Origin: Planctomycetota bacterium
Lineage (GTDB): Bacteria > Planctomycetota > UBA1135 > GCA-002686595
Direction of reading: 5' to 3'
DNA length: 64,000 bases
Assembly: GCA_046155895.1 (NCBI GenBank)
Contig: JBJXFB010000080.1
Coordinates: 23,350-87,349, forward strand
Shown: positions 8,676-62,998 of the stretch, piece after piece
How the letters are laid out: each line of letters begins with the position of its first letter
How positions within the stretch are numbered: position 1 is the first letter of the stretch
The notes under the pieces: model-generated
Seen by the model: only the letters and a program-made list of their open reading frames with translations
Told to the model about the DNA's origin: nothing
Databases searched by the model: none
Translations under genes and position numbers: made by a program

Positions 8676-8698
8676 GACCTGTCGAACCGAGCCCTGTC

Positions 8699-13250: not shown

Positions 13251-13254
<4 letters not shown>
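12589..13254 (+). CDS. actA: Alternative Complex III subunit ActA, pentaheme cytochrome c
   Basis: ATG 12589 (MAQVFHPS..) after GGTAGGA. N-terminal TM anchor. Five CXXCH motifs: CRFCH, CMGCH, CESCH, CLACH, CSVCH. First gene of an actABCDEF series. Confidence 0.85.
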
Positions 13255-16226
<2,972 letters not shown>

Positions 16227-16240
16227 CCGCCCGTCTGGAC

Positions 16241-17635: not shown

Positions 17636-17639
17636 TCGC

Positions 17640-19923: not shown

Positions 19924-19924
19924 C

Positions 19925-21130: not shown

Positions 21131-21137
21131 GGCGGGC

Positions 21138-23744
<2,607 letters not shown>

Positions 23745-23755
<11 letters not shown>

Positions 23756-24443
23756 CGCGACCAACGCCGCCGGCGCGGCTCACGCCGCCCATGAGCAGCA
23801 CGTCGAAGGGCTCGCGCACCACTTCGTGAGCCTCGAGCAGCAGCACGAGGCATCGCGACTGGGGATGTGGGCGTTCCTCGCGACCGAAGTGATGTTCTTC
23901 GGCGGGTTGTTCACGGGCTACGCCGTGTACCGGAACATGTATCCCGAAGCGTTCCGGCTCGCGAGCCACCATCTCGACATCGGGTTGGGCGCGACGAACA
24001 CGGTGATCCTGATCGGATCGAGCTTGACGATGGCGCTGGCGATCCGCGCCGCGCAGGTGGGGAAGCGGAATGCGCAGGTCGGCCACCTGATCGCGACGAT
24101 GGTGCTCGGAACGGCGTTCCTCGTGATCAAGGGCTTCGAGTACCACCACAAGTGGGTCGATCACCTGATGCCCGGCCCGAGCTTCGACGTCGCCCAGTTC
24201 GGCGCGGAAGGCGGCCACGCGCGGATCTTCTTCTCGTTCTACTTCGTCATGACGGGCCTGCACGCCTTCCACATGGTGGTGGGCTTCGGCCTGCTCGCGT
24301 GGGTCGCCGCGCGCGCGCGGCGAGGCGAGTTCACGCCGCAGCACCACTCCGCGCTCGAGATGACGGGCCTCTACTGGCACTTCGTGGACCTCGTGTGGAT
24401 CTTCCTGTTCCCGTTGCTGTACCTGATCGGACGCCACCATTGA
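23745..24443 (+). CDS. ctaE: cytochrome c oxidase subunit III
   Basis: TTG start overlaps the ctaD 3' end. [18 protein letters not shown]..., [34 protein letters not shown]. Confidence 0.9.
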
Positions 24444-36570: not shown

Positions 36571-36890
36571 CAACTCCGGCTCGGGTTCGCGCGAGGCGCC
36601 CCCTGGATGCGGAGCAGGCGGGGTGGTGGTTATCCCCCATCGCCTGGACGAACGGGTGCACACCCACGGAGCTTCGCAAGGCCGGGTACCGGAGCCGCCC
36701 GTGCCGCGAGGGCCTGCAGGTCGTCTACCCGATGCACCGCGAGCCAGGCATGGGAACCCCCTGGCGGGTCGGCATTCCAGCGGTTGGCGATCGATCCCAG
36801 CCTGCGGGATTCTGCTGGGCGACCTGCATCCATCGGGGCGGCAGAGGCGAAGAGCAGGCGGTCCACTGAAACCCCAAAGGAACCCTCCCC

Positions 36891-37829
36891 ATGCACTCTC
36901 TCCTCCACGGCGGCCTTCTCATGGCCGTCGCCACGACTCTCAACTTCTCCACCGGCGAAGGCAGCTCCGCGACCTGCGCGGATCGAACCGCGTCCGCTTC
37001 GTCCGTCGAGACCAAGACGATCGTCGAGACCGCCATCGGCGCCGGGAGCTTCAAGACCCTGGTCAAGGCCCTCGAAGCGGCCAATTTGGTCGATGCGCTG
37101 AAGGGACCGGGCCCCTTCACCGTCTTCGCGCCCAGCGATGAGGCCTTCGCCAAGCTCCCCAAGGGAACGCTCGAGAACCTGCTCAAGCCCGAGAACGCGG
37201 AGACCCTTTCGACCATCCTCACCTATCACGTCGTCTCCGGCGATGTTCGTGCCGAGAAGGTCGTCAAGCTGAATTCGGCCACCGCCCTCAACGGTCAACG
37301 CATCGCCGTGAACGTCGACAAGGCCGGCGTGCGAGTGGCCGGGTCTGGCGTGGTCAAGACCGACATCGCCTGCAGCAATGGCGTCATCCACATCGTGGAT
37401 CAAGTGATGATGCCCGCCACGAAGAACCTCGTGACGACCGCGGTCGACGCGGGCCAGTTCAAGATCCTCGCCAAGGCTCTGGGCGCGGCCGGCCTGGTCG
37501 AGGCGCTCTCCGGCAAGGGTCCGTTCACGGTCTTCGCGCCCACGGACGAGGCCTTCGGCAAGCTGCCGAAGGGCACCCTCGAGAGTCTCCTCGAACCCGC
37601 CAACAAGGAGAAACTCGTCGAGATCCTCCAGCTCCACGTGGTTGGCAGCCGCGTGTACGCCGACCAGCTTTCGAACTCGGTCATCGAGACCCTGGGCGGT
37701 GGCAAGGTGAAGATCGAGGTTGGCGAGGACGGTGTGATGGTCGGCGAGGCGAACGTGAAGAAGGCTGACCTGGAGACCACCAACGGCGTGATCCACGTGA
37801 TCGATCGCGTGCTCCTTCCTGGAGCGTGA
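36891..37829 (+). CDS. fasciclin domain-containing protein (two FAS1 domains)
   Basis: Two copies of the pattern TIVETA...[40 protein letters not shown]...L..IL.YHVV......NGVIH.VD.V..P. Confidence 0.9.
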
Positions 37830-45632: not shown

Positions 45633-48047
45633 TCACAGCGTCACCTTGCGCAGACGCAGCGCATTGAGAACGACCGAGATCGAGCTCAGGCTCATGGCAG
45701 CGCTCGCGAGCATGGGGTCGAGCAGCAGGCCGAAGAAGGGATAGAGTGCGCCGGCCGCGACCGGCACGCCGAGCGCGTTGTAGAGGAAGGCGAAGACCAG
45801 GTTCTGCCGGACATTGCCCATGGTTGCGCGCGACAGCTTGCGGGCGCGCACGATGCCCATTAGGTCGCCCTTGACCAAGGTCACGCCGGCGCTCTCCAGG
45901 GCGATGTCTGTCCCGGTCCCCATGGCGATGCCGACGTCCGCCCGTGCCAGTGCCGGTGCATCGTTGACTCCGTCCCCGGCCATGGCCACCACATAGCCCC
46001 GGGCCTGCAGCCGGCGCACGAACTCGTCCTTCTCCGCGGGCAGTACGCCGGCGGTGACGTCGACGATGCCCAGATCGCGGCCGACGGCTGCGGCGGTCGC
46101 CGGTTCGTCGCCGCTGAGCATGACGACTTGCAGACCTTCCTCGCGCAGGAGCCGCAGGGCCTCGGGAGTCGTGGCCTTGATCGGATCGGCCACTCCCATG
46201 GCCCCTGCCAGGGCGCCGTCGACGAGCGCATAGATAACCGTGGAACCGCTCTCCCGGAGCGCCGCGACCTGCCGCTCGAGTCCCATCGGGCGGACGCCGA
46301 GCTCCGCCAGCAGGGCCTCGTTGCCCAGGGCCACCGCGCGCTCCCCCACGCGACCTTGCACGCCCTTCCCGGGCACTGACGTGAAGTCCGCCAGGGGCAA
46401 CAGCTCGAGACCGCGCTCGTGCGCGGCGGCCAGGACTGCGCCGGCGAGAGGGTGTTCGCTGCCGCGCTCCAGACTGGCGGCCAGCGTGAGCAGCTCGGCT
46501 TCGCCGTACTCGCCGGTCGTAAGCACGCGCTTGAGCCGCGGCTTGCCTTCGGTCAGCGTTCCGGTCTTGTCCACCACGAGCACCTGCACACGCTCGAGCG
46601 CCTGCAACGCCTCGGCATCCCGGATCAGGACGCCGGCGGCCGCTCCTCGGCCGGTGCCGACCAGGATCGACATCGGAGTGGCCAGTCCGAGGGCGCACGG
46701 GCAGGCGATGATCAGCACCGCCACGGCGTTCGCGAGCGCGAAGCTGAAGGCCGGCGCGGGGCCGAAGATGAGCCAGGCTCCCAAGGTCAGGAGGGCGATG
46801 ACGATCACGACCGGCACGAACCAGCTGGCCACCACGTCCGCCAGGCGCTGAATCGGCGCGCGGCTGCGCTGAGCCTCCGCCACCAGGCCCACGATGCGAC
46901 TCAACAGGGTCTCGCTACCCACCCGTTCGGCGCGCAGGATCAGGCTCCCCGCGCCATTCAGCGTCCCGCCGGAGACCGCGTCGCCGGCCTGCTTGGTCAC
47001 GGGCAGGGCCTCACCGGTGAGCATCGACTCGTCCACGTGGCTGCGTCCCTCGAGCACGACGCCGTCGACGGGCACGCGCTCCCCGGGACGCACGCGCAAC
47101 CAGTCCCCCACGTGCACGCGCTCGAGCGGCACGTCTTGCTCGCGGCCGTCGACGCTCACGATCCGCGCGCTTGGAGGGGCCAAGTCGAGCAGCGCGCGCA
47201 GCGCGCTCGAAGTGCGGCTGCGGGCCCGCAGCTCGAAGAATTGTCCCAGCAGGACCAGCGCGGTGATCACGGCCGCGGCCTCGAAGTAGACGGGCACTGC
47301 GCCCTCGGGCCCACGCAGGGACTCCGGGAAAAGCCCCGGTGCTACCGTCGCCGCCACGCTGTAGGCGAAGGCCGCGCCGACGCCCAGCGCGATCAACGTG
47401 TACATGTTGAGGTGGCGCGTCGCGAGCGAGGCCCAGCCCTTGCGGAAAAACGGCAGGCCGCCCCACATCACGACCGGCGTCGCGAGCGCGAGCTGCAACC
47501 AGGCTTGGGCCTGGACGGACAGGACCCGGCTCACGGGCCGACCCGGAATCATCTCGGCCATCGCCAGGGCGAAGACCGGCAGGCCGAGAGCCAGGCTCCA
47601 TCCGAGGCGCCGGCGCGTGTCGACCAGCTCGTGACTCTCACCCTCGACGGGAATCCCGCGCGGCTCCAGGGCCATCCCGCAGATGGGGCAGTCGCCCGGG
47701 TGACCCTGTGCGATTTCGGGGTGCATCGGGCAGGTGTATTCCGTCCCGCGCGGGACCTGGGATGTCTCCGAGTGGGGCTCCGCATGCTCCGTGTCCCCCA
47801 CCACGTGACCGGCGGCGCCGGGGTCGCGAGTTCGCCCTGCGCTGGGACCTTCGTCCCGGCCCGAGAGGTATCGCCCGGGTTCGGCCTCGAAACGCTCCCG
47901 GCACCCCGCGCTGCAGAAGGCAAACGTCGCGCCCCGGTGCTCGAGGACCCTTCCGCTGGCCCTGGCGGGATCGACCCGCATGCCGCAGACGGGGTCAGGT
48001 AGCAGGCTGGCTCGCTCGGGTGCGGCGGTGTGTCCGATCGTCGTCAT
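45633..48047 (-). CDS. heavy-metal (Cu-type) translocating P1B-type ATPase with N-terminal YHS/TRASH and Cys-rich metal-binding domains
   Basis: ATG 48047 after GGAG. YHS-like DPVCGMRVD...[19 protein letters not shown]...[15 protein letters not shown] motif [18 protein letters not shown] phosphorylation site and [10 protein letters not shown]. Confidence 0.9.
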
Positions 48048-48224
48048 GGGGAAAGCTCCGGTTTGGGGACACCCGCAGAGACGAACGACACTGGGCGGCA
48101 TAACACCCCTTCTTTCAGGCCCTCCTCCGGTTGCGAAAGAGCCCGCAGGCCAGCGCTGGCCGTCACGCAGCGCAATCACCGCCCGCGGCGGAAGCGCGGG
48201 TTCCCCGCCTTCGACTGCGAGCGG

Positions 48225-48824
48225 TCAGTCGCAGGAACCGCCCGAGGCCGCGCAGGTGCAATCCACGCACCCGTGGACGGCACAGGTTCCGCAGGCCGAC
48301 TCGACGCGCTTGCGCAGGGCTTCGCGTGCCCGGAACAGGCGCACCGCTGCGTTGCCGGGAGTGATTCCGGCCTCTCGGGCGTAGTCCTTGACCGAAGCGC
48401 CCTCGACCTCCATTCGCAGAACGGCCTGGGCGTACTCGGGCTTCAGGCTGCCAGCAAGCTCGACCACGCACTGGCAGATCACCCGCTCGGCCTCGGGATC
48501 GGGACCCGCCTCGGGCAGCTCCGCGCCGAGCTGGTCGAGCACGCGCTGCCCCGTGGCGCGCCGGCGCTGGTGATCCACCACGGCGTTGCGCAGAACCCGG
48601 TAGAACCAGGCGGTCAGGGCTTCCCGTTCTCGCAGAGTCGCGCCTCGCTGCAGGCCGCGCACGAACGCATCCTGCAGGATGTCCTCGGCCAGCGCCCGGT
48701 CGCCGACCTTGCTCACGAGGAAGTCGAGGAAGCGCCGGTGCTGCTGGACCAGCAGCTCGGCCACCTCCGAGTCCGGCGGAGCGACGGGGGCCATGTCCTC
48801 CCGACTTGCATCAGGGCCCGGCAT
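48225..48824 (-). CDS. ECF RNA polymerase sigma factor with C-terminal Cys-rich extension (CorE-like)
   Basis: Sigma2 region (FLDFLVSKVGDRALAEDILQDAFVRGL) and sigma4 region (VKDYAREAGITPGNAAVRLFRAREALRKR). CQC motif (RVICQCVVE). 6-Cys tail ACGTCAVHGCVDCTCAASGGSCD. No anti-sigma gene is adjacent. Confidence 0.8.
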   Translation of the reverse strand: MPGPDASREDMAPVAPPDSEVAELLVQQHRRFLDFLVSKVGDRALAEDILQDAFVRGLQRGATLREREALTAWFYRVLRNAVVDHQRRRATGQRVLDQLGAELPEAGPDPEAERVICQCVVELAGSLKPEYAQAVLRMEVEGASVKDYAREAGITPGNAAVRLFRAREALRKRVESACGTCAVHGCVDCTCAASGGSCD

Positions 48825-49592: not shown

Positions 49593-52028
<2,436 letters not shown>

Positions 52029-52434: not shown

Positions 52435-53955
52435 TCAGGCTCGCGCACTCCGCCTCGAGGAAGCGGACGGGAGCTCCCATTTCTCCCAGCGCTCGATGTA
52501 CGCGTCCACGCTCAGCTTTCTGCGCGTGTTCTCGCTCGACATGTAGCGGATCTTGCCGAAGACCTCGCGCTCAGGGCCCCATGCACGGTCGTAGCGCCCC
52601 AGCACCCAGAAGATGCCGCTGTAGGAGTTGGGGTCGCGGCCGTCGAGCGCGTACTTGTTGTTGAGCTCGATCATGGTCGCGAGCGCGTCGCGCGGACTCT
52701 CGCTCCAGTGCAGGATCTTCTTGCCCCACAGCATGCGCAGATAGTTGTGGATGCGGCCCTCGATGCGGAGCTGGTTCTGGGCCGCGTTCCACAGATCGTC
52801 GTGGGTCTCGGCGCGCTCGAATTGCGCGAGCGTGTACAGGTGCGGGCGCCGGTCGCCGGCGTGTTCCTCGAGCGTGGTCCGGGCCCAGTCGGGCAACGAT
52901 TCGTAGCGGTCGTAGTCGTCGCGCTGCGCGCAGAAGTTCAGGCCGAGTTCCCGCCAGGTCACGAGCTCGTCCAGGAACGATTCGGCCGCGCCGCTCATGC
53001 CCCACCAGCCCGTGCGCTTGCCCTTGCGCGCCCCCGTCACCTCGCTCGGTGACCAGCCTTCGCGCCGGGCCAGGGCCTGCAACACCTCGTGCGGCGAGAC
53101 GTGGCCGAAGTGCAGGTAGGGCGACAGGCCGGAGGAAGCATCGGACTCGGGCTGGCTGCGCTCCGCGCCGTAGCGTTCCAGGCCGTCCGCGAGGAATCGC
53201 TTCAACGCGCGGCTCCCGGCCTGCGAGCCGCCGGCAAGAGGTGCGGGAGGAACGCCGTGGTCGATGGGCAGCTCGGCCAGGGCCCCGTCTGCGCCGCCGA
53301 GCAGGGACTCGCTGGCGCGCGGCCAGCGCGCGGCCACGCCATCGGGCAGCCGCCGGCACGGACGCAGCTCGGTGCGCAGGGGGTCACTGCGCGGTGCCGC
53401 CGCGAGGTGCGGCGCGAGCTCGCGCTGCAGGAAGCGGCGGAAGTCGAAGGCGCGTGCGAACGACTTGTCGGCCGCGCGAAGCGGAAGAAGGCCGTTCGAG
53501 TCCACGGCCTCGAGCCGCACGGATACCTTCCGGGCCGCGGCCGAGACCATGTGGGGCAGGAAGAAGGCCGGGTATTCGTCGGTCACCACCGCGCAAGCGT
53601 CCGCGGCCAGTCGCTCGACGAGTCCGCGTCCGGCGCCGGCCCGAGGCTCGACGTAGGGGTGGTAGCAGACGCCGCCGCGCTCGAACGCGCGCGCATTGTC
53701 GGCCATCCCGTCGAGGACGAACCGGTGCAGGCGCTCGCTGGCCCAGGGGTAGCCCGCGCGCAGCGCCTCGAGCACGATCAGCGGGCGGTCCAGATCGCGC
53801 GCCAGCTCGACCGCGCGGTCGAGGGCGAAGTTCCAACGCGCGCGGCGAGCGGCGGTCATCCAATACAGGACGTATCTGCCGTCCGTGCGGAACGGCGCCG
53901 CGTTCATGGCGCGAATGCGGATCGCCGGTACGGAACCCGGGTTGTGGGTGCCCAT
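52435..53955 (-). CDS. phr: class II CPD deoxyribodipyrimidine photolyase
   Basis: YVLYWMTAARRARWNFAL. FLDELVTWRELGLNFC. LWNAAQNQLRIEGRIHNYLRMLWGKKILHWS...LNNKYALDGRDPNSYSGIFWVLGRYDRAWGPEREVFGKIRYMS. ATG 53955 overlaps the ybgA stop (TGATG); ATG 53907 is an alternative. Confidence 0.85.
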   Translation of the reverse strand: MGTHNPGSVPAIRIRAMNAAPFRTDGRYVLYWMTAARRARWNFALDRAVELARDLDRPLIVLEALRAGYPWASERLHRFVLDGMADNARAFERGGVCYHPYVEPRAGAGRGLVERLAADACAVVTDEYPAFFLPHMVSAAARKVSVRLEAVDSNGLLPLRAADKSFARAFDFRRFLQRELAPHLAAAPRSDPLRTELRPCRRLPDGVAARWPRASESLLGGADGALAELPIDHGVPPAPLAGGSQAGSRALKRFLADGLERYGAERSQPESDASSGLSPYLHFGHVSPHEVLQALARREGWSPSEVTGARKGKRTGWWGMSGAAESFLDELVTWRELGLNFCAQRDDYDRYESLPDWARTTLEEHAGDRRPHLYTLAQFERAETHDDLWNAAQNQLRIEGRIHNYLRMLWGKKILHWSESPRDALATMIELNNKYALDGRDPNSYSGIFWVLGRYDRAWGPEREVFGKIRYMSSENTRRKLSVDAYIERWEKWELPSASSRRSARA

Positions 53956-54959
53956 CAGGCGTGGTTTCGGAGCATCAGCTCCTTCGGATGCGGGTCGAAG
54001 TAGAGCTGAGCCGCCAGGTAATCGATTTGATGGCGGCGGATGTCGTAGCGCAGGAGCGTCAGCGGCACGACCAGGGGCAGGAGGCCGCGCCGGTAGTCCT
54101 CGATGGCCGACAGGATCTCGCGCTTCTCGAGCGCGCTCAGCTCGGTCTTCATGTAACCCAGCGCGTGCTGCAGCACGTTGGCGTGCCGCTTGTTCGTGGC
54201 TCGCGTGCAGAGCGCCGCCTGGAGCTCGGTCTCGTAGGCCTCGAACAGTTCACGGTTGCCGGTCTTCCCGATGCTGCCCACCAGCCGGCCGAGACGCTGG
54301 TAGGCGGCCTCGTTGTGGGCGCGGATCAAGAGCTTGTGCGCGGTATGGAACTCGACCAGCCGCCGCCGCGTCAGGCCGCGGCTGACCAGCACGCGCCAGC
54401 GATTCCGGCAGAACACGCGTTCGATGAAGTTCTCGCGCAGGTGGGGATCGTTGAGGCGCCCTTCCTCCTCCACCGGCAGCCCCGGCCAGCGGCGCAGCAG
54501 TTCCGCTGCGAAGAGCCCCCTCTCGTCGCGCCGCATCGGCATGCCCTTCTGGTAGACGCGAATGCGTTCCAGACCGCAGGACGGGGAGGACTTCTTCAGC
54601 ACGTAACCGTCGAGGTCTTGTTTCGCCAGCTCTCCGATCCGGCTCGCGGAGTAGGCCTGCATCCGCTGGGTGAAGTCCTCGCCCGTGGAAGGCGCGACCA
54701 TGCGCAGGCCCTGGCCCTCGTCCACCAGGCGCACGGTGGGGCGCGGGGTCCCCATGCCGATCTCCATCTCTGGACAGACCGGGATGAACTCGAACCACTG
54801 GCCGAGGGTCTCGACCACGAAGCGATCGCGCGCGTGACCGCCGTCGAAGCGGACGTTCTCCCCCAGGAGACAGCTGGAGACGCCTATGCGCAGCGGTATC
54901 TCTTTCGAGTGCCAGTGGTTCCAGCAGCCCAGGTCGATGGCGGCCGATTCGACCATCAC
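53955..54959 (-). CDS. ybgA: YbgA family protein (DUF523 + DUF1722)
   Basis: IGVSSCLLGENVRFDGGH...IPVCPEMEIGMGTPRP (DUF523), followed by a DUF1722-type helical C-half. Upstream of the photolyase, as in the E. coli ybgA-phr arrangement. Confidence 0.8.
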   Translation of the reverse strand: MMVESAAIDLGCWNHWHSKEIPLRIGVSSCLLGENVRFDGGHARDRFVVETLGQWFEFIPVCPEMEIGMGTPRPTVRLVDEGQGLRMVAPSTGEDFTQRMQAYSASRIGELAKQDLDGYVLKKSSPSCGLERIRVYQKGMPMRRDERGLFAAELLRRWPGLPVEEEGRLNDPHLRENFIERVFCRNRWRVLVSRGLTRRRLVEFHTAHKLLIRAHNEAAYQRLGRLVGSIGKTGNRELFEAYETELQAALCTRATNKRHANVLQHALGYMKTELSALEKREILSAIEDYRRGLLPLVVPLTLLRYDIRRHQIDYLAAQLYFDPHPKELMLRNHA

Positions 54960-56434
54960 GCAGCCTCCGCCGCGTTCGGCCGAGCTCCGGCCTCCGCCGC
55001 GCGCGCGACGCTCTCGAGCATGCTGGAAAAGATCATGCGGTGCAGAGGGTAGACAAGGTACCAGTAGGCGAGGCCCGCCAACCCGACGGGGTCGAAGATC
55101 GCGGTTTGGCGGATCGTCGCGCCGCCCTCGCGCGGCTCGACTTCGAACTCGAGCCAGGCGCGTCCAGGCAGCCTCATCTCGGCCCGCAGACGCAAGCGGC
55201 GGTCGGGCTCATAGGCTTCCACGCGCCAGAAGTCGAGCGCGTCGCCGACACGGAGCCGATCGGGGTGAGGGCGTCCGCGACGGACTCCCACCCCGCCCAC
55301 CAGGAGGTCGAGGAGGCCGCGCAGCCGCCAGAGCCAGTCGAACGCGTACCAGCCCGCCTCGCCGCCGATGCGGCGGATGGGCGCGAAGGCGCGCCCGGGA
55401 GCCACGGCCACCGTGCGCGCGCGCGCGTCGATCATCCGGTTGCCAAAGCGAACGCCGGCCCAGCTGCGAGCATCGCCACCGGACGAGAAGGCGTCCGACC
55501 AGCGGCTCTCGGCGAACTCGCGCTCCTCGTTGCGCACCGCGGCAGCTACGGCCGCGCGCATTCCGCGCGGGCGCACCGCGAAGGCCTCGAGTGCCGCCAG
55601 GTCGCGCACCACGGATGGATGTTTGATCGACTCGATCAGCTTCCGGCCCACGCGCGCGTAGAGCGGAGTCACGAGACCCAGCCACAGGCTCGAGAGACGC
55701 GGCGTGAGCACCGGCACGCGGATCATGATCCGCCGCAACCCGCGCTGCCGCGCGTACTCGCGCATCAGATCACCGTAGGAGACCCGGTCGGCACCGCCGA
55801 TCTCGAACACACGGCTCGCCTCGAGTGGCACATTCAGCGCCTCGACCAGGTAGTCCAGCAGGTCCTCGATGGCGATGGGCTGCGCTTCCACGGCCACCCA
55901 GCGGGGCGTGATCATGACCGGGAGGCGCTCGACCAGCGCGCGGATCATCTCGAACGACAGGCTGCCCGAGCCGAGCACGATCGAGGCCCGCAGCTCGAGC
56001 ACGGGCACGCCCGACTCGTGCAGGACCCTACCCACCTCCTGCCGGCTGTGCAGGTGCGGCGAGAGCTCGTCGCCGTGCCCCAGCCCGCCGAGGTAGATGA
56101 TGCGCTCCACCCCTGCGCGACGCGCGGCCTGCGCGAAGTTGTGTGCCGCTGTGCGGTCGCGTTCCTCGAAGTCCTGGCCCGAGCCCATCGAGTGGATCAA
56201 GTAGTAGGCGCTCTGCACGCCCTCCAACGCGCGATCCAGGCTCCCCGGTTCGAGAACGTCACCGCCGACCACCTCGGTCTTGGGCCCGACGCGTGCCGCC
56301 AGGTCCTGGGGCCTGCGAGCCAGGCAGCGCACGGAGTGGCCGCTCTCCTCGAGGCGGCGGCGCAGACGGCCGCCGACATACCCGGTGGCGCCCGTGATCA
56401 GAACGAGGCCGGTCATGGACTCCTGTCGACGCAA
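54956..56434 (-). CDS. NAD(P)-binding SDR-family protein fused to DUF2867
   Basis: VLITGATGYVGGRLRRRLEESGHSVRCLARRP Rossmann motif. C-terminal ~170 aa (WYAFDWLWRLRGLLDLLVGGVG.RRGR...DALDFWRVE) match DUF2867. Confidence 0.75.
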   Translation of the reverse strand: MRRQESMTGLVLITGATGYVGGRLRRRLEESGHSVRCLARRPQDLAARVGPKTEVVGGDVLEPGSLDRALEGVQSAYYLIHSMGSGQDFEERDRTAAHNFAQAARRAGVERIIYLGGLGHGDELSPHLHSRQEVGRVLHESGVPVLELRASIVLGSGSLSFEMIRALVERLPVMITPRWVAVEAQPIAIEDLLDYLVEALNVPLEASRVFEIGGADRVSYGDLMREYARQRGLRRIMIRVPVLTPRLSSLWLGLVTPLYARVGRKLIESIKHPSVVRDLAALEAFAVRPRGMRAAVAAAVRNEEREFAESRWSDAFSSGGDARSWAGVRFGNRMIDARARTVAVAPGRAFAPIRRIGGEAGWYAFDWLWRLRGLLDLLVGGVGVRRGRPHPDRLRVGDALDFWRVEAYEPDRRLRLRAEMRLPGRAWLEFEVEPREGGATIRQTAIFDPVGLAGLAYWYLVYPLHRMIFSSMLESVARAAEAGARPNAAEAA

Positions 56435-56438
56435 CGCC

Positions 56439-57044
56439 TCAGCCGCCCGTCACCGGCCGGGATCGGGCCGGCTCGCCACCCGGAGAGGCGGCCGCGAGGG
56501 AGCGAACCTCTCGATCGAGCTCCAGCAGCTTGCCCGCGGAGAACCCTCGATCATGGAACCAGCGGATCTCGCCGTGCGCGTCGATCAACAACACGCGCAT
56601 GTTCCGGCCACCTTCGTTGCCGGTCAGCGTGCGCATGACCCGTGCACTCTCGCCGTAGAGCGTGAGGACCGCGCCCCAATCTTCGTGGGGAATGCCGGAA
56701 CGCATTCCCGAATCGATGAAGCGTGCGAAAGCTCCCGCAATCCTGCCGGGGATCGTGGGCAACTCGAGGACGCGCGCGGGAGTCTCGGATTGCAGCAGCC
56801 CGAACAGCCAGCGGTCCGCGTCGAACTGGGCGTCTTGCTCGAAGCCCACGAGGAGCACCGCGGGTTCCCCGCGGAGGTCCTCGGGCAGGCGCAGCTCCTC
56901 GCCCTCCAGCGTCTTGCCGGCCAGCGGCGGGAGCTCCTCCCCCGTCGGATCGCGGTTGGGATTCGGGGAGCTGCAGCCGGCCAGCATGCTGGCGAGGAAG
57001 CACACCGCCAGGACCGCCGTGTCTTTGCGCTTCGTTCGGGTCAT
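56439..57044 (-). CDS. lipoprotein, thioredoxin-fold-like without CxxC
   Basis: ATG 57044. Lipobox FLASMLAGC. GKTLEGEELRLPEDLRGEPAVLLVGF resembles AhpC/TSA-like proteins, but no redox Cys pair is present. Its stop lies 4 nt upstream (on the minus strand) of the SDR gene start. Confidence 0.5.
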   Translation of the reverse strand: MTRTKRKDTAVLAVCFLASMLAGCSSPNPNRDPTGEELPPLAGKTLEGEELRLPEDLRGEPAVLLVGFEQDAQFDADRWLFGLLQSETPARVLELPTIPGRIAGAFARFIDSGMRSGIPHEDWGAVLTLYGESARVMRTLTGNEGGRNMRVLLIDAHGEIRWFHDRGFSAGKLLELDREVRSLAAASPGGEPARSRPVTGG

Positions 57045-57177
57045 GAAGGTCTTTCGAGCCAAACCCGGCAGTGGATGCGACTCCCTGGATGCATCCAGGG
57101 GGAAGTCAGGGTCGAAGGTAGGGATGCCGTTCGGCTGCCTGAACAGCGCTGCGGCGGAGTCGCCCCCGAACGTGAGC

Positions 57178-57558
57178 ATGTCCACCCACTTGTACCTCGC
57201 CTTCAATGCACTGATGTACGCGGTTTTCGCCGCGTGGTGCACCATGGCCCCGCGACAGACCGCGGAGTTCGTGGGCCTGCGGACGGCCAGCTCGGGAGGC
57301 GAGTCGGAATACCTGGCCGTCTACGGCGGGCTGCAGGCGGGCCTGGCGCTCTTCTTCGGACTGGCGTCCGTCTCCGAGAGCCAGCAGCGCTCGGCGCTCT
57401 GGCTGTCGGTGTTGCTGTACGGGGGCATCTCGGCCTTCAGGACCATCGCGGTCGTTCGGCTCGGATTCGGGCAGCTCGGCAACGCGCGCTTCTTCTACTG
57501 TGCCGAGATCGTGCTCTTCCTGATCGCGGCGCTCCTGCTCGCACGGCGTCCGGCTTGA
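57178..57558 (+). CDS. small 4-TM membrane protein (DUF4345-like)
   Basis: ATG 57178 (MSTHLYLAFNALMYAVFAAWC...). 126 aa with four hydrophobic helices. The family assignment is from memory only. Confidence 0.5.
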   Translation: MSTHLYLAFNALMYAVFAAWCTMAPRQTAEFVGLRTASSGGESEYLAVYGGLQAGLALFFGLASVSESQQRSALWLSVLLYGGISAFRTIAVVRLGFGQLGNARFFYCAEIVLFLIAALLLARRPA

Positions 57559-57741
57559 ATGCGAGGAAGGGAATGCCCGTCGGCGATGCTCGATCCGAAC
57601 AGGCCCGCCTCGCGCTGGCGCCCTCGACACGCCTTCAGGGACCCGGTGCTTCCTACCGGAGCTTGCCTGCCCCCACTCACGCCTGACGCGGGCCGCCAGC
57701 AGGCCCATGAAGTACGATGGCGATCCGAGCGCGCGTACCTC

Positions 57742-58302
57742 ATGCCCGAGTTCAACCCGGACAGCCTGCTACAGCGCATCGCACGCGGCGAGGCCGCGGC
57801 CGTGGAAGCCTGCATGGAGCGCCATGCGCCCCTCGTGTGGTCCCTGGCGAAACGGATGACGCGCGACGTGGGCACGATCGAGGAGCTGGTGCAGGAGATC
57901 TTCGTCGACATCTGGCGCAGCGCGAGCCGCTACGATCCGGCCGTAGCCTCCGAGGCCACTTACATCGCGACCATCGCGAGGCGCAGGATCATCGACCGGC
58001 AGCGGCGCGCCGCGCGGGCTCCGACGGTGGAATTGCCCGAGGAATCGCTGGCCGCCGAGCCCGAGCCCGACTTGTCCTCGGTCGACGACCGCGACGAAGC
58101 CCAGCGGGCCATGCGCGCCCTGGAGTTGATCAAGCCGGAGCAACGCCGTCTGATCCTGATGGCCGTGGTGGAAGGGCTCACGCATCAGGAAATCGCGGCT
58201 CGAACCCAACTGCCGCTCGGAACGGTCAAGAGCCACATCCGCCGCGGACTGGACCGGACGGCTCAGATCCTGCGCGCGCCGCGCACGGAGACTCGCCCGT
58301 GA
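57742..58302 (+). CDS. ECF RNA polymerase sigma factor
   Basis: ATG 57742. Sigma2 LVQEIFVDIWRSASRYDP and sigma4 RLILMAVVEGLTHQEIAARTQLPLGTVKSHIRRGL. Translationally coupled to the downstream anti-sigma gene. Confidence 0.85.
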   Translation: MPEFNPDSLLQRIARGEAAAVEACMERHAPLVWSLAKRMTRDVGTIEELVQEIFVDIWRSASRYDPAVASEATYIATIARRRIIDRQRRAARAPTVELPEESLAAEPEPDLSSVDDRDEAQRAMRALELIKPEQRRLILMAVVEGLTHQEIAARTQLPLGTVKSHIRRGLDRTAQILRAPRTETRP

Positions 58303-59078
58303 TTGCCCACTTCTCCGGCTGGGACCAGCGCACGCTGGAGCTTGCCCTGGACGAAGTCACCTTCGGCCTCGATCCTCTGGATCGCGAGGAACTCCTGGAG
58401 CGCGTCGACCCGCGAGCACTGCAGGAGCTCGAGTTCGCCGTAGCGTCGCTGAACGTCGCGGCGCTGGGAGAGCTGGAATCCCCGCCCGCCGAGCTGACCC
58501 GGCGTATCGCGGCCGCCGGTCGCGCCCGGCTCGCCACGACGGCCTCCACGCCGCCCGCGTCGCAGCGTCCCGCGCCGATCCCGAGTGCGCGCCGCCGCGG
58601 CTGGGTCGCAGCCGCCCTGCTCGCGGCCGCGCTCGTCCTGGCTGTCTTCGTGCTGGATCGTGTCCGCGAGCGTCGCCTGGCTCCGGTCGAGCGGCGCGAG
58701 CAGCTCCTCGCCAGCGCATCCGACCTCGTGCGCGCGGCCTGGAAGGCGAGCGACGATCCGTTCGCCGGCGGCGTGAGCGGCGACGTCGTCTGGAGCTCCG
58801 CGCGCCAGGAGGGCTACATGACCCTGCGCTCCCTTCCCGCCAACGACCCCGCGCGGAACCAGTATCAGCTCTGGATCTTCGATTCGACGCGCGCGGAATG
58901 GCAGGCGAAGCCGGTCGATGGCGGCGTGTTCGACGTCGTTTCCGGCACGGAAGTGATCGTCCCAATCGACGCCAAGCTCGAGGTCCGCCGGGCCGCCATG
59001 TTCGCGCTCACGCTCGAGGCTCCCGGAGGCGTCGTCGTGTCCGCGCGCGAGCACCTGCTCGCGATTGCGACGCCTTGA
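58299..59078 (+). CDS. anti-sigma factor with RskA-type (anti-sigma-K) extracytoplasmic domain
   Basis: GTG overlaps the sigma stop (GTGA). Single TM WVAAALLAAALVLAVFVL. C-terminal YQLWIFDS......KPVDGGVFDV.......VPIDAKL......FALTLEAPGGVVVS is the RskA pattern. Confidence 0.75.
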   Translation: MIAHFSGWDQRTLELALDEVTFGLDPLDREELLERVDPRALQELEFAVASLNVAALGELESPPAELTRRIAAAGRARLATTASTPPASQRPAPIPSARRRGWVAAALLAAALVLAVFVLDRVRERRLAPVERREQLLASASDLVRAAWKASDDPFAGGVSGDVVWSSARQEGYMTLRSLPANDPARNQYQLWIFDSTRAEWQAKPVDGGVFDVVSGTEVIVPIDAKLEVRRAAMFALTLEAPGGVVVSAREHLLAIATP

Positions 59079-59105
59079 ACCGGACGCGCCAGGCGAGCGC
59101 CCCGG

Positions 59106-60182
59106 CTAGGAACCGACCAGCCCGAGCCCTTTTCGAACGGCCTCCGCGGCGTCGGCGGCATGCCCATCGGCTCCGGAGCGCCGCCACAGCTCGGGTCGTC
59201 CCGCGTATGCGGCGCCCCCCACCAGGATGCGCAGGCCAGGTCTGCCCGCGCGCAGGGCCCGGATCGCTTCCGCCGTCCTGACGCGCTGCTCGTCGAGCGT
59301 CGCGCCCAACGCGACCAGATCGGGCTGATGGCGCAGGACGAAGGTCACCAAGTCCGCGACCGGCGTGTCGGCTCCCAGCAGCAGGGTGCGCCAACCGTCG
59401 AGCTCGAAGTGCGCCGCCACGAACGCCAGTCCGAGGTCGTGCGCGTCGCCGGCCACCGCGGCGACCACCACGGTGCGCTCTCGAGGACGAGCACGGGGAG
59501 CCTTCGACAGCGCGAGCGTGAGCACCTTGCGCGTGGTCTGCGTTGCGTAGTGCTCCTCGCCGACGCCCACCGCGCCGAGATGCCAGCGCCGGCCGAGCTC
59601 GCGCTGGGCGGGAACGAGGACCGAGTCGACGAGCGCCTGCACCGTGAGCCGGCCCTCGTCGAGTGCCTCGCGAACCAGGCTCGTGGCGCGGACCTCGTCC
59701 CCGGCGACCAGCGCGTCGACGTAGCTCTGCGCGAGTGTTCCTGCCGGCGAGGCCGGGCCGGGCGGCGCCGGCTCCGCGGCGACTCCGCTATCGAGTTCGT
59801 GGCGGGCATGCCGGAAGTACTCGCCGAGGGGGGACCACGCCTCGCCCGGCAGGGATTCCTCGAGCACGGATTCGAGACACGTCAGGGCCAGAGCGAGACC
59901 GTCGGAAGGCATGGCGCGTGCGGCGAAAGCGTCGCGAGACCAGGCGACTCCTGCCGAGAAAAGCTCGGGAGCCTCGTCCTCGACCGCCGAAGCCAGCGCG
60001 AGGACTTGCCGGCTCAAGTAATCCTGCCACGCAGCGAAACCGGTCGACTCGACGACATCGGGCGCGCGCTCGAACATCTTCGCCGCCGCCAAGCCGGCGA
60101 AGCCTCTCGTGCTGGCGCGCAGAAGTGATGCCGTGAGCGAGGTAGCTTCCACGCATTGAACACCATGCCCGCAATCTGGCAC
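59106..60182 (-). CDS. cobalamin (B12)-binding protein: unknown helical N-terminal domain + CarH-like four-helix bundle + B12 Rossmann domain
   Basis: DxHxxG motif GDAHDLG. GG motif ILVGGAA. W-X9-E-H motif in the preceding helical module (RRW-HLGAVGVGE-EH). No MerR-type HTH is recognisable in the first ~165 aa. Confidence 0.75.
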   Translation of the reverse strand: MPDCGHGVQCVEATSLTASLLRASTRGFAGLAAAKMFERAPDVVESTGFAAWQDYLSRQVLALASAVEDEAPELFSAGVAWSRDAFAARAMPSDGLALALTCLESVLEESLPGEAWSPLGEYFRHARHELDSGVAAEPAPPGPASPAGTLAQSYVDALVAGDEVRATSLVREALDEGRLTVQALVDSVLVPAQRELGRRWHLGAVGVGEEHYATQTTRKVLTLALSKAPRARPRERTVVVAAVAGDAHDLGLAFVAAHFELDGWRTLLLGADTPVADLVTFVLRHQPDLVALGATLDEQRVRTAEAIRALRAGRPGLRILVGGAAYAGRPELWRRSGADGHAADAAEAVRKGLGLVGS

Positions 60183-60293
60183 CGCGTCAATGCCCGTCGG
60201 CGCAGGGTCGTCGGGCGCGGGTCCTGTCGGGGGGGCGACGAGCGACGCGAGTCGTGATCCGCAGCGGACGGAAAGTCAGCTCGCCCCGCTCGG

Positions 60294-60974
60294 TCATTTC
60301 GCTTTCGCATCCTCCTCGATCGTCTCGAGGTAGTGCTGGAGGAAGAACTTCTTCTCCGGATCGAAGTACCGATCCGATCTCCCGACCAGCGGGCGCAAGG
60401 TCGTCATCATCTGGCAGCAGGTCAGGAGGAAGATCAGGGCCCAGACCAGAGTGAGCTCGGGGTGTTTCGACTTCCAGCGCTTGAGGGACGCATGGAGGAC
60501 GCGCACGCTCACGAGGATCGACAAGCCCCAGACGATGAGGTGGATCGCGCCGATGAAGAAGACGAGCGTCGAGGACTGGGAGAACACCCAGGCGACGGGC
60601 GCGAATCCGACCAGGAAAACTGCGGTCAGGGCGAGGAGGCCCAGCAGGAGTCCGAGCACGTGCTTCGCCCGCACCTCCGCGCCGGACAGCGTCGAGAAGA
60701 TGTAGAGGCTCGGGTAGCAGATCGCCCCGCACAGAACCGTCCCGAGCACGATCTTCGAGGGGGCCGCCCACCACTGCGCGCCGCCGGAGAAGCTACCGAC
60801 GACGAGGCCGTACGCGAGATGTCCGGCGATCGCGGTCAGGGCGAGCATCGCGAGCAGGCGCGCCGCGCCCGGGCCGTCGAGCTCGGCGAGAAGTAGATCC
60901 GGGCTTCGGATCAGCCGATCGAGGGGATTGCCGCGGGCGGAGGTGGGAGGATCGGAATCGGCTCGCTCGTTCAT
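60294..60974 (-). CDS. hypothetical 5-TM membrane protein (paralog of 60984..61733)
   Basis: Five hydrophobic helices. After TM5 there is a TTLRPLVG motif and an amphipathic tail (KKFFLQHYLETIEE). Same architecture as the upstream gene (WNLRPWFG...QGTLYESVYRMV). Confidence 0.6.
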   Translation of the reverse strand: MNERADSDPPTSARGNPLDRLIRSPDLLLAELDGPGAARLLAMLALTAIAGHLAYGLVVGSFSGGAQWWAAPSKIVLGTVLCGAICYPSLYIFSTLSGAEVRAKHVLGLLLGLLALTAVFLVGFAPVAWVFSQSSTLVFFIGAIHLIVWGLSILVSVRVLHASLKRWKSKHPELTLVWALIFLLTCCQMMTTLRPLVGRSDRYFDPEKKFFLQHYLETIEEDAKAK

Positions 60975-60983
60975 CGGCTCAGC

Positions 60984-61733
60984 TCAGAAGTGGTAAAGGA
61001 CCATGCGGTAGACGGACTCGTAGAGCGTCCCTTGGAACGCGTCCTCGCGGAGGAACTCGACCTCCATGCCGGGCGTGCCGAACCAGGGCCGCAGGTTCCA
61101 CGACAGCTGCGCGCCCACGATCAGGTTGACGGCGAGCCAGGAGAGGACGACTCGGTCATCGTGCGCGGCGGAGGGACATGCCTCCCGCAGCCAACGCTGC
61201 TGGCGTCGAACGGCCGCGATGCCGGCGACCGCGATCGCGAGGACGTGCGAGAGGGCCAGAACGTCGTGCCCGACGCGCGCGCCGACGGATTCGGGCCCCG
61301 GCAGCGTGAGGTCGAAGAGCAAGATCACGAGCGCGAAGGACCCGAGGACGATTCCAGCGACTCCGAAGGCGAGGAGCACGGCTCGCAGCGACTGCGCGAA
61401 CGTCAGGTCGAGTCCCAGACGCCTCGCCCACAGTCCGTTCAGCACGGCATTCGTGAGCGCCGTGAGCACGAGGAGCAGGGGCAGCTTGATCGCGACGTAG
61501 GCGGCGAGAAGGGGATCGCGCCACAGGCCCATGGCCGCGCCGTAGGCGCTGCCGCCGACCGTGAGGAGGAGGACGGGCTCCAGGAAGCCCGCGGCGTTCC
61601 GGGAGAAGATCCACCCGCTCGCCATGGAGGGCTCGCTCCTCAACAGGGCCGAAGCGCGTGACGCGAGCGAGGCAGAGGTCATGGGATCCCAGAGGAGGCC
61701 GGCGGGAAGGAGGCCGTTCACTTTGTACCGCAA
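60984..61733 (-). CDS. hypothetical 5-TM membrane protein (paralog of 60294..60974)
   Basis: Five hydrophobic helices and a conserved LRPxxG after TM5. 9-nt gap to the downstream paralog. The exact start is uncertain. Confidence 0.6.
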   Translation of the reverse strand: MRYKVNGLLPAGLLWDPMTSASLASRASALLRSEPSMASGWIFSRNAAGFLEPVLLLTVGGSAYGAAMGLWRDPLLAAYVAIKLPLLLVLTALTNAVLNGLWARRLGLDLTFAQSLRAVLLAFGVAGIVLGSFALVILLFDLTLPGPESVGARVGHDVLALSHVLAIAVAGIAAVRRQQRWLREACPSAAHDDRVVLSWLAVNLIVGAQLSWNLRPWFGTPGMEVEFLREDAFQGTLYESVYRMVLYHF

Positions 61734-61843: not shown

Positions 61844-62998
61844 TCAGCGAGCGGCCTCGAGCCGGGTCCATGCGAGCGTCGACCCCACGTTGGGATCGAA
61901 GCCGGCCTCGTTGGAGAACACGTACTCGCCGCTCCGGTTCGTCCACACGTCTCGATAGCCCGAGGGAAGCTGGACCTCGCGTCCCTCGTAGGGATGGTCA
62001 TAGGTCTCCACGCCGCGGACGTACTCGCTGAATTCCCGCGACGTGCGGTCTTGAGAGGCCTGGCGCTCCTCCCAGGACGAGCGCATCCCGGCCAGGATCT
62101 CGTCGTTGTTGCGCGAGATCCGCCGGGAGAGCTCTCCGGCGTCGCGAATCGACTGCATCTGGCCCTGGCGCCAGAGATCCAGGACCTGCGCGTAGCCGGC
62201 GTACCAGGCGAGCTCGAGGCGCAGCGAGGAGATCATCGCCTGCAAGAGCGGAGCGAGCGTGTCGATGCGGTCCTTCTCGGCTCGAAACGAGTACTGGTGC
62301 TCGAGGCTCCAGATCGTCATCGTCGGGACGAGGGGAGAGCGCGAGAGGACGATCGTGATGTACACGTCCTCCGCGACCGCCTTCCCGCGGTCCACGTATT
62401 CGAGCCGGACTTTTCCGGCGCTGACGCGCTTCTCGACGCCCGCTTCCTGCACGCCCTTCTGGACGGCGCGCGAGACTTCGGGGAGCTCCGTCGCGGCCCC
62501 GATCTTCAGGCCCTGGACGCTCTTGCGGTGCAGGGGAACGAACACGTCACGCACGTAGCCGAGCACGTCGCGCGGGGGCGGGTACACCACGCTGCCCATG
62601 TAGTTCTGCCCCGTCTGGAAGAAGCCCACGCTTCCGCTGTCGTCCCAGCAGGCGGGGATGATGGGGAAGGACTCCAAGGCGGCCGCGCTCTTCGGGTCAC
62701 GAACGACGAACTGTCCGGTGGCGAGATTGGAGTACTGCATCTGCCACAGGACGCCGCCCTGGATCGTCCATTCCGCGGGGATGAGCATCGTGAATGCTGT
62801 GCACCCGATGCCGGGATCGGCGACCTCGATCCTGCGCAGTTTCAGATTCTGGCTCGCCGCGATCGCCGGCTTCTCGTTCTTCGCCGGAGCTTGCCCGTCG
62901 GAGGAAGCGATCGCGGCCTCGCCGCAGGCGGCGATCAGAGCGGGGCCGATCCAGGCCCATCGACCGAGCGAAAAGCGGTCTCCAGGAAAGACGCTCAC
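61844..62998 (-). CDS. hypothetical lipoprotein (384 aa)
   Basis: GTG 62998. Lipobox-like GPALIAAC. Globular region followed by a charged helical C-terminus (RRISRNNDEILAGMRSSWEERQASQDRTSREFSEYVRG). I recognise no family. Confidence 0.6.
   Translation of the reverse strand: MSVFPGDRFSLGRWAWIGPALIAACGEAAIASSDGQAPAKNEKPAIAASQNLKLRRIEVADPGIGCTAFTMLIPAEWTIQGGVLWQMQYSNLATGQFVVRDPKSAAALESFPIIPACWDDSGSVGFFQTGQNYMGSVVYPPPRDVLGYVRDVFVPLHRKSVQGLKIGAATELPEVSRAVQKGVQEAGVEKRVSAGKVRLEYVDRGKAVAEDVYITIVLSRSPLVPTMTIWSLEHQYSFRAEKDRIDTLAPLLQAMISSLRLELAWYAGYAQVLDLWRQGQMQSIRDAGELSRRISRNNDEILAGMRSSWEERQASQDRTSREFSEYVRGVETYDHPYEGREVQLPSGYRDVWTNRSGEYVFSNEAGFDPNVGSTLAWTRLEAAR

Follow-up and report, generated by a model that had tools for sequence, protein, structure and literature searches.

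A photocobilin gene beside an ECF sigma/anti-sigma pair

The DNA analysed here, hereafter called the window, is a stretch of 64,000 nucleotides from a Planctomycetota bacterium (GenBank assembly GCA_046155895.1, contig JBJXFB010000080.1, positions 23,350 to 87,349). It carries on the reverse strand a gene whose product is a stand-alone photocobilin, in which an N-terminal photoglobin domain is packed on a CarH-type adenosylcobalamin (AdoCbl) module made of a four-helix cap and a Rossmann domain. The protein has no DNA-binding or enzymatic output domain. Its gene is convergent with those of a SigK-like extracytoplasmic function (ECF) sigma factor and an RskA-type anti-sigma factor. The features concerned are the following.

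59106..60152, (-): photocobilin gene, 348 amino acids from GTG 60152; the listed open reading frame (ORF) reaches GTG 60182
59787..60152, (-): photoglobin domain, a phycobiliprotein-like globin (residues 11-132), from profile searches and AlphaFold2 (AF2)/Foldseek
59505..59747, (-): four-helix-bundle cap, B12-binding_2 (residues 146-226), Pfam PF02607
59115..59474, (-): Rossmann-type B12-binding domain (residues 237-356), Pfam PF02310
60162..60190, (-): sigma70-like promoter candidate of the photocobilin gene (TTGACG 60185-60190, 17-nt spacer, CATGGT 60162-60167)
57742..58302, (+): ECF sigma, SigK-like (Pfam Sigma70_r2 and r4_2; NCBIfam SigK)
58299..59078, (+): RskA-type anti-sigma, with a cytoplasmic N-terminal domain, one transmembrane segment and an extracytoplasmic RskA_C domain

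The 358-residue ORF at 59106..60182 (-), from which the original prediction was made, is present in the ORF list of the window, and residues are numbered according to it throughout. The homology search returned ~50 clusters of full-length relatives of ~348 residues, mainly from Planctomycetota metagenome assemblies, in which Pfam recognises two B12 domains and no others. The photocobilin probably starts at GTG 60152 rather than at GTG 60182, because its homologs are ~348 residues long (at 96-97% coverage) and because a promoter-like element, TTGACG-N17-CAYGGT, is conserved just upstream. GTG 60182 falls within this element, which stops ~10 nt ahead of GTG 60152 and is found at the same position in five related loci (L010, L011, L013, L014 and L015) as well as in the window. 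Its conservation is what points to a putative sigma70-like promoter: a sigma70 consensus scan of positions 56900-60400 returned no promoter and missed the TTGACG-N17-CATGGT candidate as well. No intrinsic terminator was detected by a consensus scan of the same region, and no Rfam element was found in the window.

The C-terminal half is a CarH-type light-responsive B12 module

The original prediction had described a CarH-type light-sensing B12 module with W-x9-EH and DxHxxG motifs. Direct reading of the protein, Pfam matches and conservation in relatives all bear this out. Pfam recognised B12-binding_2 (PF02607) over residues 151-222 (E=1.1e-14) and B12-binding (PF02310) over residues 237-349 (E=6.2e-20). 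In the cap, W-x9-EH reads W200-HLGAVGVGE-E210-H211 and is accompanied by G197-x-x-W200-H201 (coordinates 59550-59585). The Rossmann domain carries DxHxxG within G245-D246-A-H248-D-L-G251 (59430-59447), where His248 is the predicted lower axial ligand of cobalamin, as well as G270-x-x-x-P274. Hence the four signatures published for light-responsive cobalamin domains (GxxW, EH, GxxH and GxxxP; SignatureFinder paper) are all present, as G197xxW200, E210-H211, G245xxH248 and G270xxxP274. All of the 71 relatives taken from the fetched loci (see below) have G197, W200, E210, H248, G270 and P274; H201 is found in 70 of them, and so is H211. Such near-invariance indicates that the motifs did not arise by chance.

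Structure comparison gave the same picture. With the full-length AF2 model (pLDDT 93.4, pTM 0.89), which the original prediction had proposed as a check, Foldseek retrieved CarH-type cobalamin-binding domains and photocobilins with TMt ~0.8 and a root-mean-square deviation (rmsd) of 1.8-2.8 Å (1.8-1.9 Å for 8j2w). Since the domain order is permuted, only the B12 half was aligned. The best NCBIfam model was CarH, which matched residues 149-338 only and with 69 bits for a cut-off of 400. We take His201, which follows Trp200, to be the counterpart of His132 in the Trp131-His132 arrangement of T. thermophilus CarH, where the His becomes the upper axial ligand once photolysis has taken place; the 'H132A variant' PDB entries among the Foldseek matches agree with this numbering. 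CarH-type modules form AdoCbl-bound oligomers in the dark, which rearrange upon photolysis of the Co-C bond (PMC10979010).

The N-terminal domain is a photoglobin

The region preceding the B12 module had been described as all-helical, devoid of a MerR DNA-binding domain and otherwise unrecognised. The first ~140 residues are indeed helical in the AF2 model, and residues 1-150 gave no match in Pfam or NCBIfam, whether to MerR or to another helix-turn-helix (HTH) family. As to the third statement, Pfam and NCBIfam merely have no model for a domain that can be recognised by other means. A family profile searched against all PDB sequences had the photocobilins 8j2w and 8j2x (E=2.7e-46) and 8j2y (E=2.5e-39) as top matches. 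This match is in two parts, the B12 module aligning to the N-terminal part of the chains and residues ~37-99 to their C-terminal, biliverdin-binding globin (independent E-value 3.8e-6). With a profile of the N-terminal domain only, the globin of the photocobilin SasPcob came first (E=9.5e-8), followed by allophycocyanin beta (0.016) and the photocobilin AbPcob (0.045). When the domain was modelled alone (pLDDT 93.9), nearly all Foldseek matches were to allophycocyanins, phycocyanins and smURFP, which binds biliverdin (TMq 0.77-0.82, rmsd ~2-2.6 Å over ~125 columns), with TMq 0.68 and 24% identity for SasPcob. This structure search, which had also been proposed at the outset, gives the region a globin fold without HTH.

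From these profile and structure matches, the N-terminal domain is the photoglobin of Schneider et al. 2021 (PMC8717448), a phycobiliprotein-like globin reported as fused to B12-binding_2 and B12-binding 'either before or after' the globin, in a set that includes a Planctomycetaceae sequence. The 'new output domain' of the original prediction is thus a bilin-type sensor domain that was already described, and it is probably the domain that senses a second chromophore. The N-terminal half is conserved as well as the C-terminal half, with L63, W81 and R89 invariant in the alignment from the homology search.

Searching the N-terminal profile against 1.84 billion cluster representatives gave 840 matches at E<=1e-3, of which 386 at E<=1e-10. 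The best 150 of these matches are mostly ~345-365 residues long and have the globin at or near the N-terminus in nearly all cases. The N-terminal-globin photocobilins therefore form a large, coherent subfamily. A 560-residue metagenomic member, P0078, has the module order of the window protein, with the globin N-terminal, followed by a diguanylate cyclase output (photoglobin-B12-GGDEF). Many members bear the Joint Genome Institute (JGI) names 'methanogenic corrinoid protein MtbC1' or 'MerR family ... light-induced transcriptional regulator', both of which are misleading for this architecture.

Residues of the bilin pocket were assigned through the ungapped HMMER alignment to SasPcob and the published numbering. 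The invariant W81 occupies the position of SasPcob Trp296, which packs on the D ring of the bilin, and W52 is also conserved. R89 is at the position of an Arg near the SasPcob bilin site and is found in 68 of the 71 relatives. At the position of SasPcob Asp270, which holds pyrrole rings A-C, the window protein has Tyr55; 48 of the 71 relatives have His there, and none has Asp. AbPcob, which has a His at this position, binds biliverdin weakly and keeps a red-light response (PMC10979010). Binding of biliverdin or another tetrapyrrole by this subfamily is therefore no more than possible.

The neighbouring sigma and anti-sigma factors are of the SigK-RskA type

The start of the anti-sigma gene overlaps the stop of the sigma gene by 4 nt, and its end lies 27 bp from the photocobilin stop, tail to tail. 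The best NCBIfam model of the sigma factor is SigK (123.5 bits for a cut-off of 226). The protein has one Cys, and the Cys pair of SigK (C133 and C183 in M. tuberculosis) is not kept. In the anti-sigma, RskA_C scores 39.6 bits for a Pfam cut-off of 29.4, and an NCBIfam anti-sigma model also matches. The window thus has the SigK-RskA-type arrangement of an ECF sigma gene followed by that of an RskA_C anti-sigma. Where SigK proteins lack the conserved cysteines, their RskA is more often missing, altered or truncated (PMC7509140). In the SigK-RskA literature, the activating signal is described as 'still unknown' (PMC7509140), and the N-terminal portion of RskA alone suffices for SigK inhibition. 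No match to a MerR-B12 regulator was found anywhere in the window.

Linkage of photocobilin and sigma genes is conserved in several arrangements

Contigs were inspected for seven homologs, then 80 loci were fetched from species-representative genomes and marker proteins were mapped onto all of them. These loci span Planctomycetota including Phycisphaerales, Gammaproteobacteria (Chromatiales, Thioalkalivibrio), Acidobacteriota and Krumholzibacteriota. The close clade is defined by at least 45% identity, and the count of convergent loci in it is for those with enough flank.

In the close clade, the sigma gene is convergent with the photocobilin gene in 9 of the 10 loci. The nearby convergent ECF pair to which the original prediction had drawn attention is hence a matter of conserved synteny. 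A full-length RskA-like anti-sigma is present in the window and in six of these convergent loci. Locus L013 (on the same contig as L003; L003 9057-9305) has instead a soluble anti-sigma of 82 residues that consists of the cytoplasmic N-terminal domain only, its first 63 residues being 54% identical to the cytoplasmic N-terminus of the window anti-sigma. A truncated RskA(1-81) reported for Nocardia offers a parallel. The shorter distance to the sigma gene suggests that L017 also has a short anti-sigma. Two other arrangements were observed outside the close clade. In five distant loci (L020, L027, L029, L043 and L062), the photocobilin gene precedes the sigma gene on the same strand at 8-47 bp, and no recognisable anti-sigma gene follows. 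In L069, sigma, anti-sigma and photocobilin genes follow one another on a single strand. Together, at least three independent gene orders join the photocobilin to sigma/anti-sigma genes, 8-70 bp apart or overlapping, in several phyla. This conserved linkage to a SigK/RskA-type pair suggests light as a possible input of the sigma system.

Many loci also have, beside the photocobilin gene, a DUF1295 gene, two CMAS-type methylase genes, an amine-oxidase-like gene and a DUF1365 gene. The CMAS, amine-oxidase and DUF1365 types are the counterparts of UfaM, UfaD and UfaO of the furan-fatty-acid pathway, which belongs to the singlet-oxygen sigmaE-ChrR regulon of Rhodobacter. Fasciclin genes adjoin the sigma gene in L014, L016, L018 and L019.

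The Chromatiales loci L027, L029, L043 and L062 share the gene order secreted SnoaL-like/DUF4440 protein, photocobilin, ECF sigma, with gaps of 8-10 bp and no anti-sigma gene; in L062, a cupin/JmjC-like gene follows the ECF sigma gene.

An ECF-type promoter motif outlines a predicted photoprotection regulon

The regions upstream of DUF1295 clusters and of SDR-DUF2867, DUF4345 and fasciclin genes of different genomes have in common the motif TGCATCC-N15-(G/T)CGAA. Exact copies in the window, and the genes that they precede, are the following.

57090..57116, (+): ECF-type promoter TGCATCC-N15-TCGAA, before the DUF4345, sigma and anti-sigma genes
57178-57558, (+): DUF4345-like gene, ahead of the sigma and anti-sigma genes
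57053..57078, (-): ECF-type promoter GCATCC-N15-TCGAA, 9 nt before ATG 57044 of the photolyase operon
52435..57044, (-): predicted light-stress operon (Pfam), divergent from the DUF4345 gene
56439-57044, (-): lipoprotein gene, ATG at 57044
54956-56434, (-): SDR+DUF2867 gene (Pfam)
53955-54959, (-): YbgA-like gene, 2-thiouracil-desulfurase/DUF1722 (Pfam)
52435-53955, (-): class II cyclobutane pyrimidine dimer (CPD) photolyase gene (E=2.9e-77 to 8oet, 1.3e-76 to 2xry)
36825-36851, (+): third exact copy of the ECF-type promoter, before the fasciclin gene
36891-37829, (+): fasciclin-domain gene (feature 36825..37829 with its ECF promoter), a distant member of the predicted regulon

The exact motif thus occurs three times in the 64-kb window for 0.16 expected, each time in a promoter position, and none of 100 shuffles reached three. 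Its presence before DUF4345-sigma-anti-sigma, where it is also found upstream of DUF4345 in L012 and L017, predicts autoregulation of the sigma factor. The relevance of the photolyase operon, the second neighbour mentioned in the original prediction, is supported by the promoter motif it shares with the sigma operon. Over the close clade, 31 exact matches were counted for 0.22 expected from base composition, and in the remaining loci 9 for 1.19 expected.

The photocobilin gene of the window clade has no ECF motif and carries the sigma70-like element instead, as would be expected for a constitutively made sensor. A variant, TGAATCC-N15-GCGAA, lies at most 200 nt upstream of the photocobilin gene and on its strand in 26 of 79 loci (~0.33 expected), all of them in a branch of 34-42% identity that is mainly gammaproteobacterial. 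An exact GCATCC-N15-GCGAA is also found directly upstream of the photocobilin gene in L021 (~6182, (+)), an acidobacterial locus outside that branch. The TG[AC]ATCC motif is not present in the Chromatiales photocobilin-sigma loci, whose sigma factors may have another promoter specificity. From these linkage and motif data, the photocobilin is coupled to the ECF system either by its position beside the sigma/anti-sigma genes or by membership of the regulon. The predicted regulon marked by the motif would comprise the class II photolyase operon, the sigma operon and the fasciclin gene, to which relatives would add UfaM, UfaD and UfaO of the furan-fatty-acid pathway. Fasciclin genes of M. kansasii that have putative SigK sites are light-induced according to a transcriptome study.

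The two promoters at 57053-57116 are divergent, with 12 bp between their -35 boxes, and the (+) -35 box lies inside a perfect 18-bp palindrome, CCCTGGATGCATCCAGGG (57083-57100). The -10 box of the (-) promoter ends 9 nt before ATG 57044, suggesting a nearly leaderless mRNA. Two weaker matches to the motif, whose spacers are N16 and N14, occur at 53966-53991 (-) and 36586-36610 (-). The former, within the 3' end of the YbgA-like gene and immediately ahead of the photolyase start, may act as an internal promoter; the latter is divergent from the fasciclin promoter. In six loci (L011, L012, L016, L017, L018 and L019), a sigma70-like -10 box (TAGAGT, TACAGT or TAGGAT) is located ~40-60 bp upstream of the sigma start, which would imply a second, ECF-independent promoter for the sigma gene. 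In L012, L016 and L018, this box is followed by an inverted repeat that could be an operator or a hairpin of the 5' untranslated region.

Other genes of the window

On the strand of the photocobilin gene, three ORFs lie directly upstream of it (60294-60974, 60984-61733 and 61844-62998, all (-)). None has a Pfam or NCBIfam match, and the first two look like membrane proteins from their long hydrophobic stretches. Since they match no family and adjoin the photocobilin gene in no other locus, they were not retained as part of the system. A KatG-type catalase-peroxidase gene (49629-52028, (+)) adjoins the photolyase operon; no exact match to the motif was found upstream of it. An influence of SigK on katG is noted in the SigK literature. 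A second ECF sigma gene (48225-48824, (-)) is located beside that of a copper P-type ATPase with YHS and HMBD domains (45633-48179, (-)). The window further contains genes for alternative complex III (ActB-like iron-sulfur subunit, NrfD-like, ActD), cytochrome c oxidase subunits and SCO1 (12672-24443) and a DUF1800/DUF1501 gene pair (6921-9937), a content that fits a Planctomycetota chromosome.

Comparison with known systems

Photocobilins were crystallised in 2024 (PDB 8J2W, 8J2X and 8J2Y; Zhang et al. 2024, PMC10979010) and are grouped by the N- or C-terminal position of the AdoCbl domain and by the presence of a fused output domain. The window protein belongs to the predicted group with a C-terminal B12 domain and is a new member of it, built from a domain already described. 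A fused photocobilin activates its own diguanylate cyclase more than 10-fold in the light, and stand-alone photocobilins modulate a diguanylate cyclase in trans, in vitro, by protein-protein interaction, their natural role being 'less clear' (PMC10979010). With SasPcob and AbPcob, the window protein shares a CarH-like AdoCbl domain (W-x9/10-EH, His as lower ligand) and a phycobiliprotein-like globin. It resembles SasPcob in being stand-alone and in keeping the D-ring Trp296 as W81, and most of its relatives resemble AbPcob in having His at the Asp270 position. It differs from both in the N-terminal position of the globin, which defines a predicted group for which no characterised member was found in the literature searched. 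Compared with SasPcob, it has Tyr at the Asp270 position, and the residue after the Trp is His201 as in CarH, whereas SasPcob has Gln there. The genomic partners also differ, those of a Saccharothrix photocobilin being STAS/SpoIIE partner-switching genes and not an ECF sigma/anti-sigma pair.

With T. thermophilus CarH (5C8D), the window protein has in common the B12 fold (TMt ~0.8), W-x9-EH, the His beside the Trp and the His lower ligand, and with CarH/LitR proteins in general the control of photoprotective genes, which is predicted in its case. It has a globin in place of their MerR HTH, and its output must run through another protein. AerR/PpaA of Rhodobacter (7TE2) is likewise a B12 protein without DNA-binding domain, AerR acting on a transcription regulator by protein contact. 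The match to AerR is however far weaker than to photocobilins (E=9e-9 versus 2.7e-46), the N-terminal domains are different and no CrtJ/PpsR gene is located nearby.

On the side of the sigma factor, the closest known system is SigK-RskA (ECF18/ECF19; Mycobacterium, Yersinia; PMC7509140). Likenesses are the SigK and RskA_C matches, the fasciclin (mpt83-like) gene that stands beside the sigma gene and bears the promoter motif in relatives, and the existence of natural N-terminal-only RskA variants. The window sigma differs by its score below the SigK cut-off and by the absence of the two conserved cysteines, its predicted regulon is photoprotective (photolyase, furan fatty acids), and a B12 photoreceptor gene is attached to it, of which no mention was found in the SigK literature searched. 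In SigmaE-ChrR of Rhodobacter sphaeroides, an ECF sigma also drives photolyase and UfaM, UfaD and UfaO in light stress, but ChrR senses singlet oxygen and the system has no photoreceptor. In Streptomyces LitR-LitS, a B12 photoreceptor lies upstream of an ECF sigma, LitR controlling litS at the transcriptional level through its MerR domain. The window photoreceptor has no DNA-binding domain, so that control would be post-translational. A link between a photoglobin or photocobilin and an ECF sigma was not found in the literature searched, including the photoglobin, photocobilin, SignatureFinder and ECF reclassification (main text) papers. Targeted searches on photoreceptor-ECF links returned only Myxococcus and Rhodobacter systems, which work differently.

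A light input to a sigma switch and its alternatives

Because it has no DNA-binding or catalytic domain, the photocobilin must work through another protein, for which the sigma factor or the cytoplasmic N-terminal domain of the anti-sigma is the best candidate, given the loci with a soluble-stub anti-sigma, the loci without anti-sigma and the sufficiency of the N-terminal portion of RskA for inhibition. The best explanation of the data, which we consider on balance probable, is that a stand-alone photocobilin linked to a SigK/RskA-like ECF system serves as the light input to a photoprotection sigma switch. A more precise form of it is offered tentatively, with somewhat less than an even chance of being right: the photocobilins of this subfamily would be the light input of the SigK/RskA-type switch by binding the sigma factor or the cytoplasmic domain of the anti-sigma, and would gate the photoprotection regulon post-translationally. 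On the best explanation, green light would cleave the Co-C bond, red light possibly acting too through a tetrapyrrole in the globin pocket, and His201 would then occupy the upper axial position. The ensuing change of shape or oligomeric state would alter how the protein binds the sigma or the cytoplasmic N-terminal domain of the RskA-like anti-sigma. The sigma factor would thereby be freed or activated, and the photolyase genes, the furan-fatty-acid genes and the sigma operon would be switched on. Either of the two proteins may be the direct partner, and it may be bound in the dark or in the light. Of the partner-switching or antirepressor protein initially imagined, action through protein-protein contact is thus the part that is most plausible; the new output domain has not been retained.

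Several observations weigh against this explanation. The contact between photocobilin and sigma or anti-sigma is proposed from comparative genomics only, and the promoter motif is purely computational. The sigma factor is under the cut-off of the SigK model and lacks the cysteine pair. In the window, the genes are convergent and do not form an operon, and many gammaproteobacterial loci have no sigma gene within 10 kb, the photocobilin gene being placed there behind an ECF-type promoter. None of the long members P0028, P0053, P0078, P0136, P0137, P0173 and P0198 carries a sigma or anti-sigma domain; P0078 is the GGDEF fusion, and the extra N-terminus of P0028 looks like a miscalled start. With regard to a second chromophore, the bilin-contacting Asp of SasPcob is missing throughout the subfamily (71 relatives), and the window ORFs that were scanned include no heme oxygenase.

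Some of these observations could mean that the photocobilin is an ECF-induced effector of the light-stress regulon, which would sequester or shield photolabile AdoCbl and/or a tetrapyrrole, and so limit photosensitised damage or preserve the cofactor, with no control over the sigma. Its position directly behind an ECF-type promoter in 26 of 79 loci and in L021, as for a regulon member, its clustering with protective enzymes (furan-fatty-acid genes, SDRs, photolyase) and the lack of sigma/anti-sigma fusions among long family members all speak for such a role. We nevertheless rate it as unlikely: the light-signalling residues (W-x9-EH and His201, the upper-ligand His of CarH) are essentially invariant, beyond what mere B12 binding would ask for, the window clade uses a sigma70-like promoter and not the ECF motif, and some loci are co-directional with the sigma gene, 8-10 bp apart and without anti-sigma. 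Moreover, regulators such as anti-sigma factors are commonly within their own regulon, and the characterised photocobilins act as regulators. Signalling to an unlinked partner (a diguanylate cyclase, an NmrA-like protein or another regulator), the sigma gene being merely a co-resident of the same light-response island, is also unlikely, and if anything slightly more so. It would fit the in vitro activation of a diguanylate cyclase in trans by stand-alone photocobilins, the GGDEF-fused P0078, the NmrA-like gene found directly upstream in most gammaproteobacterial loci and the convergent, non-operonic arrangement in the window. At least three independent gene orders coupled to sigma/anti-sigma are however tighter than residence in a common island would give, and no diguanylate cyclase was present among the window ORFs scanned.

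Two further identities are suggested by annotation and profile matches. An ordinary CarH/LitR repressor with a cryptic DNA-binding domain, or an AerR-type antirepressor of a PpsR/CrtJ-type repressor, would agree with CarH as best NCBIfam model and with the match to AerR (7te2, E=9e-9). This is very improbable and was rejected, since the N-terminal domain has a globin fold without HTH, the CarH model covers the B12 part only and reaches 69 of the 400 bits required, and the neighbourhood has no PpsR/CrtJ or MerR gene, the search for PpsR/CrtJ covering the scanned neighbours in the window and nine related loci and that for MerR-B12 the whole window. The chances of a corrinoid methyl-carrier of a methyltransferase system are smaller still, in spite of the MtbC1 name ('methanogenic corrinoid protein MtbC1') that JGI gives to many homologs and of weak NCBIfam matches to MtgC, MtbC and MtaC. 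These matches score 33-54 bits for cut-offs of 215-450, photocobilins and CarH match best in both sequence and structure, and no methyltransferase gene stands beside the photocobilin gene in the loci of the seven homologs inspected. With the invariant W-x9-EH and GxxW signatures of CarH-type light-responsive modules and the N-terminal bilin-type globin, this identity was discarded as well.

Significance for photocobilins and for the SigK-RskA switch

As the claim of a new domain falls away, the interest of the locus lies in the conserved coupling of a photocobilin to a SigK/RskA-like switch and to a photoprotective regulon. The N-terminal-globin photocobilins are also a potential optogenetic scaffold, with a bilin pocket (Tyr or His for Asp) unlike that of the crystallised examples. 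Linkage in multiple arrangements, a sharp promoter motif and a predicted regulon join two open questions, the role of stand-alone photocobilins and the signal of SigK-RskA. If the coupling is as we propose, this would be the first photoreceptor, in the literature searched, shown to control an ECF sigma/anti-sigma pair directly; a physiological role would be assigned to stand-alone photocobilins, and the signal of the SigK-RskA family, so far 'still unknown', could be light.

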